From: Lama glama | Taxonomy: Eukaryota | NCBI GenBank assembly: GCA_028534125.1 | Contig: CM052816.1 | Span: 46,688,001-46,752,000 of the forward strand | DNA length: 64,000 nucleotides | Direction: 5' to 3' | Part shown: in pieces, positions 4,817 to 62,498 of the stretch | Numbering within the stretch: the first letter of the stretch is position 1 | Layout: the number at the start of each line of letters is the position of its first letter | Translations under genes and position numbers: made by a program | Notes under the pieces: model-generated | Seen by the model: the letters and a program-made list of their open reading frames with translations, nothing else | Databases searched by the model: none | Told to the model about the DNA's origin: nothing

Positions 4817-5124
4817 TTCATAGCTTCAAGAACACGACAATACAAACATTTTACCCTTTTGATTTATTCAGCACGTACTCTATCATGCCTTCCGAGCACT
4901 GATCCTCCCACCACGTTTTCGCTTCATAGAACTCCACAGACAGATCAAAAAACAGCACAGGCATTTCCATTTCGTGATGATAATTTTGCAAGAGATCCCA
5001 GAACTGTTCTTATGTGCTAACAAATACAGAGGCTTGGAAGGGGAAAGGAACTTTTTGATTTTTTTTTTCCTGTGTTTTCTCCCCAGTACCCCGTTTCTCC
5101 TTGTAGTTTGTGGCCTTCCTCTAG

Positions 5125-6180
5125 CCAGAGCGCGCCCATCTCCAGCGGGGCACCTTAACTACTAGACTTTGTTGCTAGTTTTTTGAAATAACCCTGTGGA
5201 CCCTGAGGGAGTTTGGACTTTAAAAAGACCCAGTTCGGGGACCCTGTCCTTTCCTATAGGTCGGCCAGGTGACAAGGCAGGCCGGCTGGCGCGGGACCTG
5301 CGCGAGGCCCCGTCGCTCTCCCAGGCTTGCAAAACGCTCGGAGCCCTCAGGGCAGCCCGTGCGGCCGGACGCAGACCGCGCGCCAGCGCTTTGTGCACGT
5401 GCGTGGGTGGGCTCGCTCCGTGCGTCGCTCGGCGTCGCTCCGCGCGCCCCTCCAGATCTGTGGGGTCCTCTTTCGTCAGCTGAGGGTAAATATCCCCAAG
5501 TTCCCCAAACCACACCAGCAGGGCAAGTCCCCCGACACCGCCCCCGCCCGTTACGGAAGCCCACCCACCGCCGCTGGCCCCTTCTCCATCCGTACCCCCC
5601 CCCAGCCCGCCACGCGGCCTCTTCGCCCAGCAACCGGCCGTGTTCCCCCAAGCCGTGACTTCCCGGCTCTGGACACCACCCGGCACACGCCCGGCCGAGA
5701 CAGCGCGGCCTCCCCTCCACGCGCCCAGGCCCAGCAGCCCCCCGAAGGGCCCCGAGCCCGCCTCCTCCTCGCCCGTGGCGCTCGCACGTGGCGCACTCAC
5801 CCCCTAGAGCTGCCTCCGAGCTTTAGAAACGCTCCGGGGAGGGAGCCCCCGCCCCCTCAGCTCCGTCCGCGCGGGAAAGTGGGTTGGGGGAGACCGACCC
5901 AGAGAAGAATGTGTAGGTACCGAGAGCTGTGTTAGAGGGGAGGGCCGGCAATAATTGGCTGGCTCGGCGGCTGTTGCGCCTCTGCTGAACGCCTAGCCAG
6001 CGAGGATTCACTTTCCACACAAATCAACCTGAGGGATTGCTGCTGCCTACAGTCAATAACTGTGAGCTGCTGAAACCGGAGGCGTTCCCGGGTCTGGGTC
6101 TTTAAAGGGGGCTGTCCGGACAGAATCCCAGCCTTCTGCTTCCCAGACAAAGAAGTGGGCACCAAAACGCAGGGTGACAT
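5125..6180. promoter_or_regulatory. Upstream CpG island, likely an alternative or antisense (MEF2C-AS1-like) promoter
   Basis: About 1 kb of very GC- and CpG-rich sequence with GC boxes (CCGCCCCCGCCC ~5538, CCCCGCCCC ~5847), ATTGG at ~5954 and a minus-strand donor GGG|GTGAGT at 5803-5795. The link to an antisense lncRNA is inferred from recalled human annotation. Confidence 0.7.
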
Positions 6181-7682
6181 TTTTCACCCCTACACCCACC
6201 CCTCTGAGTAAGGATCTTTTAAAATTAAAGGGCACACGCACACATAGAGGTATCTAGAAAAAATAGTTAAAAGGGGAAGTGTGAAAGTTCAATCTTTGAA
6301 TTGAAGGTTCCTATGATATTTCAAGAAATGGAATAGAATCAATGTTCCGATGAATATTTAACAATTTTGTAAGTAAAAAGTAAAGTCCATGAAATGTGGC
6401 CATACATGTGGATACTTTTTAAAGAACTATACATTTGCAGGCAAATTAGTGATCAAGCCTTATTTGGGCATATTGATCCAGGAAAAGGAAGAAATGTATC
6501 ATAATTTGTAGTGGCATTTTTAAAAGCCTTAACACCTATCAGACATTATTTCATGATGATTGCATTTCTGTACGATGAAAAGGCCCTGGGAGATGTGTAT
6601 TATGATGCCTACTTAATAGACTATAAAACCAAGCCGAGCTGGGAGAAAGGATTTACCAGGTGACCTGGTACTGACTCCCAAGTTGAGACTAACTCACTGT
6701 GGGCCTGAATCTGAAAGACAAAACTCAGCTAACACCCTTAAAATAAAAGTGACCAAAATTCTTCATTTCTCCTTGACTGTGAAGCAACTTAAAAATAAAA
6801 ATAAATCTTAAGGATGACAACCCCAAAATAGAGGCTTTATAAATCTTAATGACTCTTGACTATGAAAAGTCTTCCTGCTAATACAAATGGGAAATAGATA
6901 TTGACCATTATGGTCTGATATGTGTCAAGGCTGGGAGGACTAGACCCGTTCTAAAGCCAAAGAAAAGTTCATTTGTGTGCTCAAAGTCATTGAAAGCTGG
7001 TTTTAAACAGAGGCTAACACACAGGAGCACTTGTCTGTGCTCAGCACAGTAAAACACGGCTTGGAAGGATAAGGTATTATTGGTAATAGAATTCATTAAC
7101 CGTACTGAATTCACATAACTAATCCCAAAGTATTTAAAGTTGGCCTTTAGGCAACATATAAAATAAGCCCTTTCAGCAACTTCAGTTGAAACTTCAGTAT
7201 CCCAACTTGACAAATTTTATTAGCTTGGGATATGATGAATTTGACTTTCTTCCTTGTAATTCTTCATCAGATATTAAAATAAAGGTACAAAAATAAAGAT
7301 AAATATAAGAGCTTTAGATACGAGCTAAAGGATGTGATTAAACCTTGGCTTGTAATAACAAATCCTTCTTATATGGCAGATTCTCAGTCACAAACAGTCC
7401 ATGTGATGTACACTGTACATGGACTAAAGCTGAACCTAAAGAATTTTTGAAATTTAGATTTGCCATTATTTACTTTAAAGGTTTATAAGTATTATCACAA
7501 TTAATGATCATTTTAATTAATTTATATTTAATACCCATTTATTTGGTTTAAAATTAGAATTAACATTAATGGTACTTCAGATTAGAAGTTTTAGAAATAA
7601 ATTAATCTGAATGTATTTTAATATCAACATTCTTAAAAAAAGTTTTTTAATTATGTACCTTGTTGTACTTATGCATTTTAAG

Positions 7683-10869: not shown

Positions 10870-12150
10870 CCTCCAACCTCTCAGGGCCGAAAACCGCGTA
10901 TTTTGAAGGGAAGGCGCGCTGGAATCGAGTGCTGCGGACACCGTAGTCTGGGGGTTTTAAGCGTGAATAACGGAGGAGCGCTCGGACGGGTGGAAGAATG
11001 AAGTGGTTAACGCGTCTCCAAACGCGGGGGAAAGTCATAAGAGCAACTGTTAGGGTCGCGCTCCTATTGGTCAGAGGAAAGATCCCGACTTTAGAAGGAC
11101 TTTCCTGCTGGCTGGCTCGCAGCGTCCCCAGGGAGCGAGCGCGCCGCAGCCGAAGACTCGGTCCTCCGAGCGTCCTCGGCGGCGGCGCCGGGAGAGAGCA
11201 GGCAGCCGCCGCTCGCGGTGTTGTCTTCATTTCGAGCAATAAAGAATTGTCATTAGGTGTGCGTATGGCATTACCCCACCGTAAAACTAAAATTAGCAAA
11301 ATGTCAGGAATGGAAAGATTGATTCACCAAGATGCAATTATCATTTAAAAGTGCTTGATTGAGGTACTGATGTTCAGTGATTTATTCTGCATACCATATA
11401 CATAATTAAAGCAGTGTAGTGGAGTAATTTATCAATCTAGTTGAGACTGGAGGGGTGAGGAAGGAACTGCTGTATGTTTGTTTTATTAAAATGCTCCGAG
11501 GTCTAGTCCCGCCCCCCTTTTGCAAGAGTGAAACTGATGATTTCTCCAGCCCTCGAGGAGAGTCAACGGTTTGGGATTGTGAGGGAGATTGGAAAAGGCA
11601 GCGCGAGGCAAAGGCAAGGACAAAATAAAATAAAGGAAAAGAAGGCAAGAGGCACTTCATGGGACTTGCTGCTTAGAACCCCCAGCCGTGTGCTCCGTTT
11701 TCTCTACCACCCCCGCCTCCCCTCCCAATATCCTTCCACTCCCCCCGCCCCCCGCCTTTTTTACGCGATGTTTCAAAGGCTGTGAGCGGCTCTCCTTTTC
11801 CCATTCGTCTTCTGTCACTTCCTTCCTGGACGCAGTTTTCTGGACGAGTCTGGTTACTTTTAATCCGGCGGGCCGCTGAGAGCCACTTTCTCCTCCTCCT
11901 CCTCTTCCCCTTCCTCCTCCTCCTGCTGCTGCTGCTGCTGCTGCTGCTCCGAGCGGCCTCGGCGCGCGCGAATGCGCGGCCCCGAGCGCGCCTCCCCCGC
12001 GCGCGCTCCTTCCGCGCGCGCGCACACACATCGTCTCCAGCTCTCTGCTTGCTCTGCTCGCAGTCAGACACTTGAGCACACGCGTACACCCAGACATCTT
12101 CGGGCTGCTATTGGATTGACTTTGAAGGTTCTGTGTGGGTCGCCGAGGCT
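10870..12150. promoter_or_regulatory. CpG island / TATA-less main MEF2C promoter, probably bidirectional
   Basis: High CpG density against AT-rich flanks. GC boxes (CCCGCCCCC at ~11508 and 11744-11755), CCAAT/ATTGG motifs (~11066, 11589, 11725) and a double ETS core CACTTCCTTCCTG (~11816-11828). Confidence 0.85.
11889..11948 (+). repeat. Compound trinucleotide tract: CTC/TCC runs followed by (CTG)8
   Basis: (CTG)8 at 11923-11946, preceded by interrupted TCC repeats. Confidence 0.95.
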
Positions 12151-12277
12151 GCATGTTTGAATCAGGTGGAGAAGCACTTCAAGGCTGGACGAAGTAAAGA
12201 TTCTTGTTATTTTTTTCTCTCTCTCTCTTAAGAAAGGAAAATATCCCAAGGACTAATCTGATCGGTTCTTCCTTCAT
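12030..12277 (+). other. MEF2C: MEF2C non-coding first exon from the main CpG-island promoter (start approximate)
   Basis: Ends ...GGAAAATATCCCAAGGACTAATCTGATCGGTTCTTCCTTCAT|GTAAGT, a consensus donor at 12278. The sequence matches my recollection of the MEF2C mRNA leader. The TSS cannot be fixed from sequence. Confidence 0.85.
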
Positions 12278-15200
12278 GTAAGTACCTCTGACATTTCTCC
12301 AGGAAATAGAAATAGCCGGGGTATTGTCTCTGAAATCTGCATCAGTTATATTCCACTGCACCGAATCTATCCCTGTGCCTTTTTGGAGGCTGAAGTTAAG
12401 GCTTGCTGGCCATTCTTTTCTTAGATTCCGTGATTTCCTTGTGTTTTGCTAAAAGTAACTTTTTTGATAGTCTTTTCTGTTTGCCATCAGTTATTGAAAT
12501 CACTCCTGACTAGTTCTTGTCACACTAGTGTGTTTAAAGTTTCATGAAGTTAGTTCACATCATTAGCATGTTATGGTGGAGCGTGTGGAGCCTGTGGATT
12601 TTAATATTTCACAGAATGTTCTGTGACCTTGAAGTACATGCCTTAAGATTTAGCTGTTAGTTCACTATGCAAAGATGCTTCTGTGAGTCCCACCAAAGAC
12701 TGATTATTTGCTTTGGGTTATGCTTCTGAGCCACTAAATCTTGGGATTAGTTTGAGCTAAAGCATGGCTGTCTGTCAGAGTATACCTTTGTGCATCTCCT
12801 TCCTTTACCAAAGTGCTGGCTTGAGAGAGGGCTTCTTAACTGGTGTGGACAAAAAGTAATACCCTGGCCATGGTAGTCTATACATTTCACTGTTCTTGTT
12901 GGGATTTCAGTATATGCACTGCTGTTCAGATCGAGTCAAATACATAACTGTTTAAAAACAAACAAGGTTAAGTCACTTCAGTTGCCTTCTCTTTGGACTT
13001 TGGATGAAAGTTACCAAACTCAGTGATAAAGTTTGGCACAAATGAAGTATATATAGACACGGCACACTGTTTATTGTTTTATGAAATATTATGCAAGTAT
13101 TAAAGTTGAATACTAGTGTTATCTCCTTCTCAGAATACGGCTATTCATTCTTAAAGGAAATTGTATGTCTGAAACACGTCTGACTGTTCTAGGTCCAGTA
13201 GTTATCACTTTGGGGGAAAAGCTCTTTTTCTTCCCATTTTAAGAATGTGTGTCTTTTGTGTTAAATACCTTTATATGTAAATGCTGACAGTATAATAAGT
13301 AGAATCAGGCTCTCTGCCAGTTCTTTAACCGGTCCTCAGTGGAGAATTGCTTTGACATGAAGTGCGTTTTACTATTGTGCATCTGATACTAACTCTAATA
13401 GTAACCGTCTTGTGAAATGGTTAGTGCGTGCATATGTTTTCTAAGTGTTATAAAGGAACCCTGGCTACCTCATTATACCAGTCAAAGAGAGTGACCAGCC
13501 TCTTTTTCACTGGCACCTTGCAGTGGAATTGTGGTTGCAGAGTAAAGATGTTTATGTAGAGCATAATAACTCCAGTCCCTAGAGACTTGGTAGGACGTGG
13601 AAATGTGACCACCTGTGAACCCCATTTAACCTCTGTATTGCATACTAATTTTAGCTTTAAAGAGATTAACAATCTCCAAGTTGAAACTACATCTTGTTTA
13701 ATTTTTAAAATGATGTCAGTTTGGTCCAGTCTCTGAAAATGTTCAGTATGTACCAATGTGGCACAAGCAGTTTCGGTTAAATATAATGCAGTTAATAAAC
13801 CATATTATTGTCTTCCAGTATATGCATGAAGTTATTTATTAAATTAAAAGGGGTAGTTCTAAAGCAAGTGTCAGAACTTGACAGGTAAAATGACATGTAC
13901 CTATCTAATGTCTTATCTAAAGAGGGAAAAAAAACCTCTAAAATCAAATACCTCATTCTATTTGTAGGAAGATATATTTGGCTATATATTAGACTACTAA
14001 CTCAATTCTAAAAGTTTTCCTCAAAACACATTTTAAACTCAATGTTTGTTTAACATATGGTCCTCTAGTCAAGTTAAGGAGACAATAGCTGGCAGTTACG
14101 TTTACTTTAGGTTTTTACTAAACTTTAGAAAATCTACTGTTTTTTCTAATGTGATTCACACAACTTTGGAGTATTTGTAGCATATTTTCCATACTTCTTA
14201 CTAAAGACAGTATTTTACCTCATTCATTAGACTATTTACAGTCTGATTGCTGTGTATGTATGTGGAATATAGTGAAAGACAGTATTAAAGATGTAACTTT
14301 TAGTAAATATTAATTTATTTCTTATGTTTAAATAACAAATGAGCCTTCAGAATAAAAAGCCAATTTTCCGACTTTCCTGAGCTGTTCATACTTTAAAAGT
14401 ATGCAATTATATATATTAACTTTTCAGAACAAAAATATATTGATATTAAATATATAAAATTTAAATAACAAGAACCTTGCTGAACCTTGTCTCTTTTCTT
14501 CTTTGTAAACATATTCAGTTTTCAAAATTTAGGGTAAATGATTCATTCCATTAGGGAAAAGGGCTACCTAATGATTCAAAATTGAATCCTGAAAAAGCAT
14601 CATGTTTTATATTTTTCAGATTTCTCTGAGTTTCTTCTCTGACCCTCACTTTACCAAATCAATAAATTGCATAACACTAAACACTACAACCATATCTTTC
14701 CCATAAGTGATTTATTGTATTTAAACTTCTCTAAAAAAAAACTGAGCTAAATAACTCCTTGGCATATGTTAACATTATATTTCAAAACTTTCTTCTGTTT
14801 ATTGTAGTATATTTTGTGGTTTTATTTCCCAACTCTTGTGTGGTATACTTTGAGTCTCTGAAATCTCAGAAAGTGATAAAAATGGGGAAATATCTGTGCA
14901 GCAACACTTGTGCTACATAATGACAAAAAAAATAGTTATTAAACAGAGAACCCTGGCTTCAGGGACATGATTCAAAACAATGTGGAAGAATTTTGTATGC
15001 AGTTAAGGATCACAGAGTAGACTTTAAAGAGATTATTAATAAAGTTCTACTTTTTTTTTTCTCTAAGCACATCCTCTTAAGAGAACACCACACAAATTAA
15101 TATCTAAAAGTTACAAAAATGCACATATTCATTTTATGAATACAGTGATTGCCTGGACACAATGAGAAGATTTAATCACTGGTGCTCAGTCTGTGTGCTG

Positions 15201-62000: not shown

Positions 62001-62302
62001 TAAAAATACTAAGAAACTCTTTGCAAAAGACATTTCAAGTGTTGGGCTTTAAAGCATAGTTTTCATCATTTAAATGACTTGTTAAATTACTTACGAGGTT
62101 ATTTTAATTATAAAAAACAACTCATTCCTACTTGATATGCTCCTGCATGTGGTCTATACCGTGTACTTTTAATAAGTACTTATTTTCATTCATTTGATTG
62201 GCTTACTTCCAGAGAGTTTTATTTTTAAAAAATTAGATTATAATAGGTGTTATGAAACTGGCTTGCTATTAAAGTGGTGTTTAATTTTTCCTTTTTGTTC
62301 AG

Positions 62303-62444
62303 CAGGAACGAATGCAGGAATTTGGGAACTGAGCAGTGCAAGTGCTGAAGAAGGAGATTTGTTTGGAGGAAACAGGAAAGAGAAAGAAAAGGAAGGAAAA
62401 AATACATAATTTCAGGGACGAGAGAGAGAAGAAAAACGGGGACT
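62303..62444 (+). other. MEF2C: 5'UTR part of the first coding exon of MEF2C (tandem CAGCAG acceptor; exon starts at 62303 or 62306)
   Basis: Polypyrimidine tract ttaatttttcctttttgtt, then CAG CAG at 62300-62305, then purine-rich UTR GAACGAATGCAGGAATTTGGGAAC...GGGGACT up to the ATG. Confidence 0.9.
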
Positions 62445-62498
62445 ATGGGGAGAAAAAAGATTCAGATTACGAGGATTATGGATGAACGTAACAGACAG
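62445..62498 (+). CDS. MEF2C: MEF2C first coding segment (N-terminus of MADS box; 18 codons, partial gene)
   Basis: ATG GGG AGA AAA AAG ATT CAG ATT ACG AGG ATT ATG GAT GAA CGT AAC AGA CAG translates to MGRKKIQITRIMDERNRQ, the MEF2 N-terminus. Strong Kozak context (ACTATGG) and a phase-0 donor CAG|GTGAGT at 62499. The peptide alone does not separate MEF2C from MEF2A; the upstream UTR matches the MEF2C 5'UTR as I recall it. Too short to appear in the ORF track. Confidence 0.96.

Follow-up and report, generated by a model that had tools for sequence, protein, structure and literature searches.

The window analysed here, a 64,000-nt stretch of Lama glama DNA (GCA_028534125.1, contig CM052816.1, positions 46,688,001 to 46,752,000), holds the 5' end of MEF2C on its plus strand. 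A non-coding promoter exon is followed, about 50 kb downstream, by the first coding exon, whose initiation codon stands in a strong context with A at -3 and G at +4 (Table 1). The original prediction had exon 1 ending in ...CTTCAT at 12277 and a CAG-CAG acceptor at exon 2, and when the sequence was re-read every coordinate and letter proved correct. The exon boundaries are further supported by human MEF2C mRNA, which has the same exon-1 end: in NM_002397.5, ...CUUCAU is joined directly to CAGGAACG, as expected if the proximal AG is used, and the joined sequence holds no AUG there. This and the other comparisons with human were made by eye against the first ~380 nt of that mRNA, taken from supplement file 2 of PMC10547706.

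Table 1. Features of the MEF2C 5' region in the llama window (positions are those of the window)
Feature	Position	Strand	Details
CpG island at MEF2C exon 1	11501-12250		CpG scan
MEF2C non-coding exon 1	12060..12277	+	promoter exon in CpG island; 3' end ...CTTCAT
uORF1, constitutive	12153..12197	+	MFESGGEALQGWTK*; 14 codons, CDS frame; T at -3, T at +4
Exon-1 donor GTAAGT	12278..12283	+	consensus; sequence read directly
Branch-point candidate TTAAT (yUnAy)	62281..62285	+	A at 62284; predicted, motif scan of 62230-62295
Pyrimidine tract, 12 nt	62285..62296	+	followed by G, TT and CAG-CAG-G to 62306
Proximal CAG acceptor	62300..62302	+	exon from 62303; T at -4 (62299); form in human reference mRNA
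Distal CAG acceptor, putative	62303..62305	+	exon would begin at 62306 with G
Junction uORF, exon-2 part, hypothetical	62306..62348	+	14 codons; ATG from 12276/12277/62306; TGA 62346-62348
uORF2, constitutive	62312..62332	+	MQEFGN*; 6 codons, out of CDS frame
MEF2C CDS start	62445..62498	+	MGRKKIQITRIMDERNRQ; exon-2 donor from 62499

The two parts of the leader compare differently with human. Exon 1 differs by four substitutions and four indels totalling 12 nt, while the non-coding leader in exon 2 is identical at 141 of 142 positions, the sole difference being at 62335 (A here, U in human). Between uORF1 and the end of exon 1, at 12210-12229, a T-run precedes a CT repeat; the T-run has 7 nt here and 10 in human, and the CT repeat 11 nt here and 15 nt in human. 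From these sequences the segment reads as a length-variable microsatellite in the leader.

Some other features surround the promoter exon. A CTG run of about eight repeats (11925-11948), flanked by CT-rich sequence, lies immediately 5' of exon 1 and within the promoter CpG island; promoter trinucleotide repeats can be length-variable. A second and stronger CpG island at 5001-6250 (GC up to 0.72, CpG observed/expected up to 0.9) is situated about 6-7 kb upstream of exon 1 and could mark another promoter, for example that of an upstream MEF2C start or of a divergent non-coding RNA. An ORF of the lncRNA MEF2C-AS1 is listed near the human MEF2C promoter in the tables of PMC10032668.

The tandem acceptor and its distal AG

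NAGNAG tandem acceptors, reportedly treated by Hiller et al. in 2004, are defined by a motif that is found at the boundary of the intron with MEF2C exon 2, namely CAG-CAG followed by G. With C at both -3 positions the site also has the composition termed 'plausible' and belongs to the YAGYAG class. Upstream, an AG-free zone spans 62275 to 62300, and TTAAT is the only yUnAy candidate in 62230-62295, at a distance of 18 nt from the proximal AG and 21 nt from the distal one. The qualitative splice features of the site are thus a G at the start of the distal exon, T at -4, C at both -3 positions and a tract of 12 nt. As had been predicted, a junction made with the proximal AG has no AUG, and one made with the distal AG would have an ATG assembled from bases 12276, 12277 and 62306.

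The motif can be followed into human only so far as the mature mRNA permits. If the human intron ends in AG, as introns usually do, human would have a NAG-CAG-G tandem too, its first N being unreadable from mRNA. Conservation of the exon-final AT and of the acceptor had been proposed as a check on the idea, and in the comparison with human alone the AT and the CAG-G are indeed shared. This gives no specific signal, however: the shared motif is uninformative because the surrounding exon-2 leader is almost invariant and so equally well kept.

Published rules for NAGNAG choice give mixed indications for the MEF2C distal AG. According to the passages available from Bradley et al. (2012; PMC3250501), the general preference for the proximal site amounts to about 1 bit and long pyrimidine tracts accompany proximal-major sites. 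Use of both sites depends mostly on the bases at -3, with C or T (the YAGYAG class) favoured, and the distal site benefits from a pyrimidine at -4 and from a branch point close by. Hinzpeter et al. (2010; PMC2951375), in the part of that paper seen, class CAGCAG as 'plausible', meaning that both sites are usable, and rank CAG as the strongest acceptor triplet.

It could be proposed that the distal AG is essentially unused with MEF2C exon 1 (under about 2-5% everywhere), which would leave the junction AUG a possibility on paper. The human reference mRNA takes the proximal AG, in line with the general preference for that site, and the 12-nt tract is long, the feature tied to proximal-major sites. 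Moreover, creation of uAUGs in the MEF2C leader is reported to be selected against in people, which would favour keeping an AUG-forming splice rare. Against this, the C at both -3 positions puts the acceptor in the favoured class and CAGCAG among those permitting both sites; the T at -4, the nearness of the branch-point candidate and the G with which the distal exon would begin likewise speak for distal use. The reference mRNA, for its part, represents one isoform and is silent on minor ones. Nor is it informative that MEF2C is absent from the seven supplement files of the Bradley study, because events are counted there in protein-coding regions (PMC3250501, as far as available). Weighing these points, we consider a silent distal AG rather unlikely, though deserving of serious attention. 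By the NAGNAG rules some use of the distal AG is plausible, and its product may be a minor to middling isoform; the distal share could nevertheless be near zero, or dominant in some tissue.

A possible junction AUG among the uORFs of the leader

In the distal splice form alone, the leader would carry a junction AUG with an in-frame stop in the 5'UTR, the predicted uORF reading MNECRNLGTEQCKC*. It was expected to share the MEF2C CDS frame, and does so (frame 0 relative to the ATG at 62445), a gap of 96 nt separating its stop from that ATG. With T at -3 and A at +4, the junction AUG would stand in a weak context, as had been said, and the original caution that any effect may be modest was right.

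This uORF would not be alone. Two constitutive uORFs that the original prediction did not mention, uORF1 and uORF2, are present in either splice form, and all three uAUGs have weak contexts. In the distal form uORF2 begins 6 nt after the junction AUG and is nested inside the junction uORF. The two llama uORFs correspond to those labelled 'uORF1: 96-140' and 'uORF2: 240-260' on human MEF2C mRNA by Hedaya et al. (2023; PMC10547706, 10.1101/2023.06.15.545153), who mark only these two in the sections available. The junction uORF resembles them in being short, in its weak context and in belonging to the same leader, and it overlaps one of them. They differ from it in being constitutive and experimentally tested, whereas the junction uORF is missing from NM_002397.5.

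The experiments on the constitutive uORFs give some measure of what initiation in this leader can do. In the available parts of the same study (PMC10547706), reporter output rose about 1.3-2-fold when uAUGs in the MEF2C, NKX2-5 and eIF4G2 leaders were changed to UUG, and uORF-enhancing ASOs brought MEF2C protein to 0.87-fold (uORF1) and 0.53-fold (uORF2). The ASO and AUG-mutant reporter data together indicate that initiation in the uORF2 region can repress MEF2C, and that baseline repression is modest.

Three things make up a configuration such as that at MEF2C: a tandem acceptor, AT at the end of the preceding exon, and G directly behind the distal AG. For a given tandem acceptor the AT and G would come together with odds of about 1/64, taking even base use, so that a few 5'UTR introns per genome may be expected to show a potential junction AUG by chance. 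We infer that the configuration is not above chance. The substitution at 62335 falls within the junction uORF and changes a residue (Leu vs Gln); a single substitution of this kind, judged at the level of sequence, says nothing for or against constraint. A predicted hairpin across the exon junction was also considered and dropped, being no more stable than dinucleotide shuffles of the 80-nt segment (proximal form, z = -0.77, 66/300 shuffles equally or more stable; distal form, z = -1.63, 20/300).

Expected effect on MEF2C output

On balance, and with reasonable though far from full confidence, we favour the view that this is an ordinary 'plausible' CAGCAG acceptor whose junction AUG is an incidental by-product of small effect and not a dosage switch. 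The reference product is the proximal form, without the AUG, and the distal AG would probably be used in some fraction of exon-1 transcripts, as is common for YAGYAG acceptors. Messengers of the distal form would gain a third weak uAUG, whose 14-codon uORF would overlap the 6-codon uORF2 and stop 96 nt short of the CDS. Most scanning ribosomes would bypass this AUG, and those initiating there would skip uORF2 and could resume scanning afterwards, for both of which reasons its net effect should be small. In the same way the junction uORF would partly replace uORF2 and not add to it, since the ribosomes translating it read past the uORF2 AUG. Such an outcome is consistent with the portion seen of a review of uORFs, according to which the effect of a uORF varies with its context, its length and how far it lies from the CDS, and a uORF already present can be pre-empted by a new uAUG.

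The size of the effect was gauged with a toy leaky-scanning model in which initiation and reinitiation rates were assumed. For a junction AUG capturing 15% of ribosomes, the modelled output of the distal leader was 0.88-0.94 of that of the proximal leader, and across the whole grid it was 0.61-0.98. A net change of roughly 5-20% in MEF2C output might be expected per distal mRNA. It would be smaller at the population level, where it is scaled further by how much of the splicing goes to the distal AG and by what proportion of transcripts carry exon 1; several promoters serve MEF2C in rat, mouse and human heart. The junction AUG could, on the other hand, be more efficient than its context implies, giving a larger effect than estimated. 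This is conceivable because the ASO directed at uORF2, in the same region, halves MEF2C protein (0.53-fold).

The original prediction saw here a means of turning a uORF on or off. Its logic is right, in that the 3-nt shift adds or removes a uAUG, but the notion of a switch is weakened by the proximal splicing of the human mRNA, by the two constitutive weak uAUGs already present and by the short, stand-alone nature of the uORF. Because uORF2 starts close by and overlaps, the junction AUG would amount to a third weak uAUG and not to an on/off control.

A stronger reading is that the choice of AG is regulated and works as a translational rheostat: where the tissue or state favours the distal AG, the junction uORF would be gained and MEF2C protein would fall by an amount that matters physiologically. 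The sequence does allow a junction AUG, its exon-final AT and CAG-G are common to human and the llama window, and MEF2C is dosage-sensitive, uAUG gains in the same exon being reported as pathogenic. Strong tissue regulation is estimated for 12-37% of alternatively spliced NAGNAGs (PMC3250501, in the passages available), and boosted initiation at uORF2, 6-9 nt downstream, has the halving effect just mentioned (PMC10547706, likewise). All this must be set against the weak context of the AUG, the brevity of its uORF, which leaves 96 nt for reinitiation and pre-empts uORF2 instead of adding to it, and the small effects in the toy model. With several MEF2C promoters and first exons, only part of the transcripts would be able to form the AUG. 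The human-llama substitution alters a residue of the uORF, conservation of the motif does not exceed that of its surroundings, and no publication of such a mechanism was found in the literature searched. We therefore hold a rheostat of any kind to be very improbable, and a tick less probable again its fullest form, a conserved 3-nt rheostat regulated by tissue or activity, in which the cross-junction start codon measurably lowers MEF2C protein.

The main catalogue of Ribo-seq ORFs reportedly starts at 16 codons and would leave out an ORF of 14, so that absence of the junction uORF from such tables, although it counts against a rheostat, says little. No MEF2C uORF was found in the six supplement files of PMC10032668 (7,264 catalogued Ribo-seq ORFs), where the only matches to MEF2C are the MEF2C-AS1 lncORF and an unrelated disease description.

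Precedents and disease variants

Acceptor shifts of 3 nt in UTRs are usually ignored or treated as neutral. The described NAGNAG acceptors, so far as the parts seen of PMC3250501 show, share with the MEF2C site the CAG-CAG boundary motif and the favoured C at both -3 positions, and in both the insertion or deletion of 3 nt leaves downstream frames unaltered. They differ in lying in coding exons, where single residues are inserted or deleted, whereas the MEF2C site is in a 5'UTR and would form a start codon across the junction. The described cases also use both AGs, and MEF2C is known from the proximal form in human mRNA alone. In mechanism the nearest precedent is CFTR E831X (Hinzpeter et al., 2010; PMC2951375), where, according to the passages available, a translation signal at the very start of an exon is likewise gained or lost through a 3-nt acceptor shift. 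There, however, a disease mutation has put a UAG into the CDS, NAGNAG choice takes this stop out again, and the two isoforms were measured in mRNA from patients; at MEF2C the AUG is natural, built from two exons, located in the leader and predicted from sequence.

That alternative 5'UTR splicing or choice of TSS can add or drop uORFs is well known (PMC13631847, in part). As in those isoforms, one MEF2C leader would come in versions of differing uORF content and potentially differing translation. A term search of the PMC13631847 text found neither 'uAUG' nor 'junction', and its ten matches to 'tandem' include, among those listed, tandem TSSs and the title of a U2af1 reference. Our literature search, conducted mostly at the level of titles and abstracts, found no paper linking NAGNAG choice to a uAUG or reporting the MEF2C site. 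The available passages of PMC2228316, PMC7184758 and PMC2879520 do not link NAGNAG choice to a uAUG. Papers naming both NAGNAG and MEF2C were set aside as coincidental co-mentions, judging by the passages concerned, and literature on junction or split start codons held nothing relevant by title or abstract among the matches listed.

Overall the motif is real and the idea logically sound, the interpretation being partly supported and the effect expected to be small. A natural extra source of uAUGs in the MEF2C leader would bear on the reading of variants near the acceptor, such as one shifting splicing to the distal AG or one improving the context of the junction AUG. If true, a rheostat would be a new class of NAGNAG consequence in UTRs, and a single demonstrated start-codon-creating shift would justify screening UTR NAGNAGs for junction AUGs. 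The practical weight of the finding is low at present, because the effect expected on current evidence is small.

Wright et al. reportedly described uAUG-creating variants of the MEF2C 5'UTR in 2021. Four pathogenic variants of this type, c.-103G>A, c.-66A>T, c.-26C>T and c.-8C>T, are given in the parts seen of PMC7617937 and PMC13087467, and correspond to G 62342, A 62379, C 62419 and C 62437 of the window. Each change would create an ATG here, as published, and since all four do so at matching bases the exon numbering agrees with the human reference. In these same sources MEF2C is haploinsufficient and single-base uAUG gains in this exon lead to severe developmental disorder, which bears out the premise, already present in the original prediction, that the gene is dosage-sensitive. 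In the passages available, c.-66A>T gives a uoORF overlapping the CDS out of frame and c.-26C>T and c.-8C>T an N-terminal extension (PMC7617937), while c.-103G>A is listed only as 'uStart_gain' (PMC13087467); our own reading of the sequence places its ATG at 62342 out of the CDS frame.

The junction AUG and the pathogenic variants have in common the exon, the leader and the principle that a new uAUG means less functional MEF2C. Unlike c.-66A>T, which overlaps the CDS, and c.-26C>T and c.-8C>T, which extend it, the junction AUG meets an in-frame stop 96 nt upstream of the CDS (TGA, 62346-62348), and so lacks the uninterrupted path to the CDS of the pathogenic type. By its sequence the junction uORF would belong to the stand-alone class, which allows reinitiation and whose effects are milder and not easily predicted.

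The ATG created by c.-103G>A would fall within the hypothetical junction uORF, 4 nt short of the stop codon. One could speculate that ribosomes translating the junction uORF on distal-form mRNAs would read through this uAUG, in which case the splice form could slightly modify the effect of the variant.

The remainder of the exon-2 leader, 62349-62444, is strongly purine-rich (GA-rich) and, compared by eye, identical to human mRNA; the four published pathogenic uAUG positions lie inside or just before it. Its conservation suggests a function beyond spacing.
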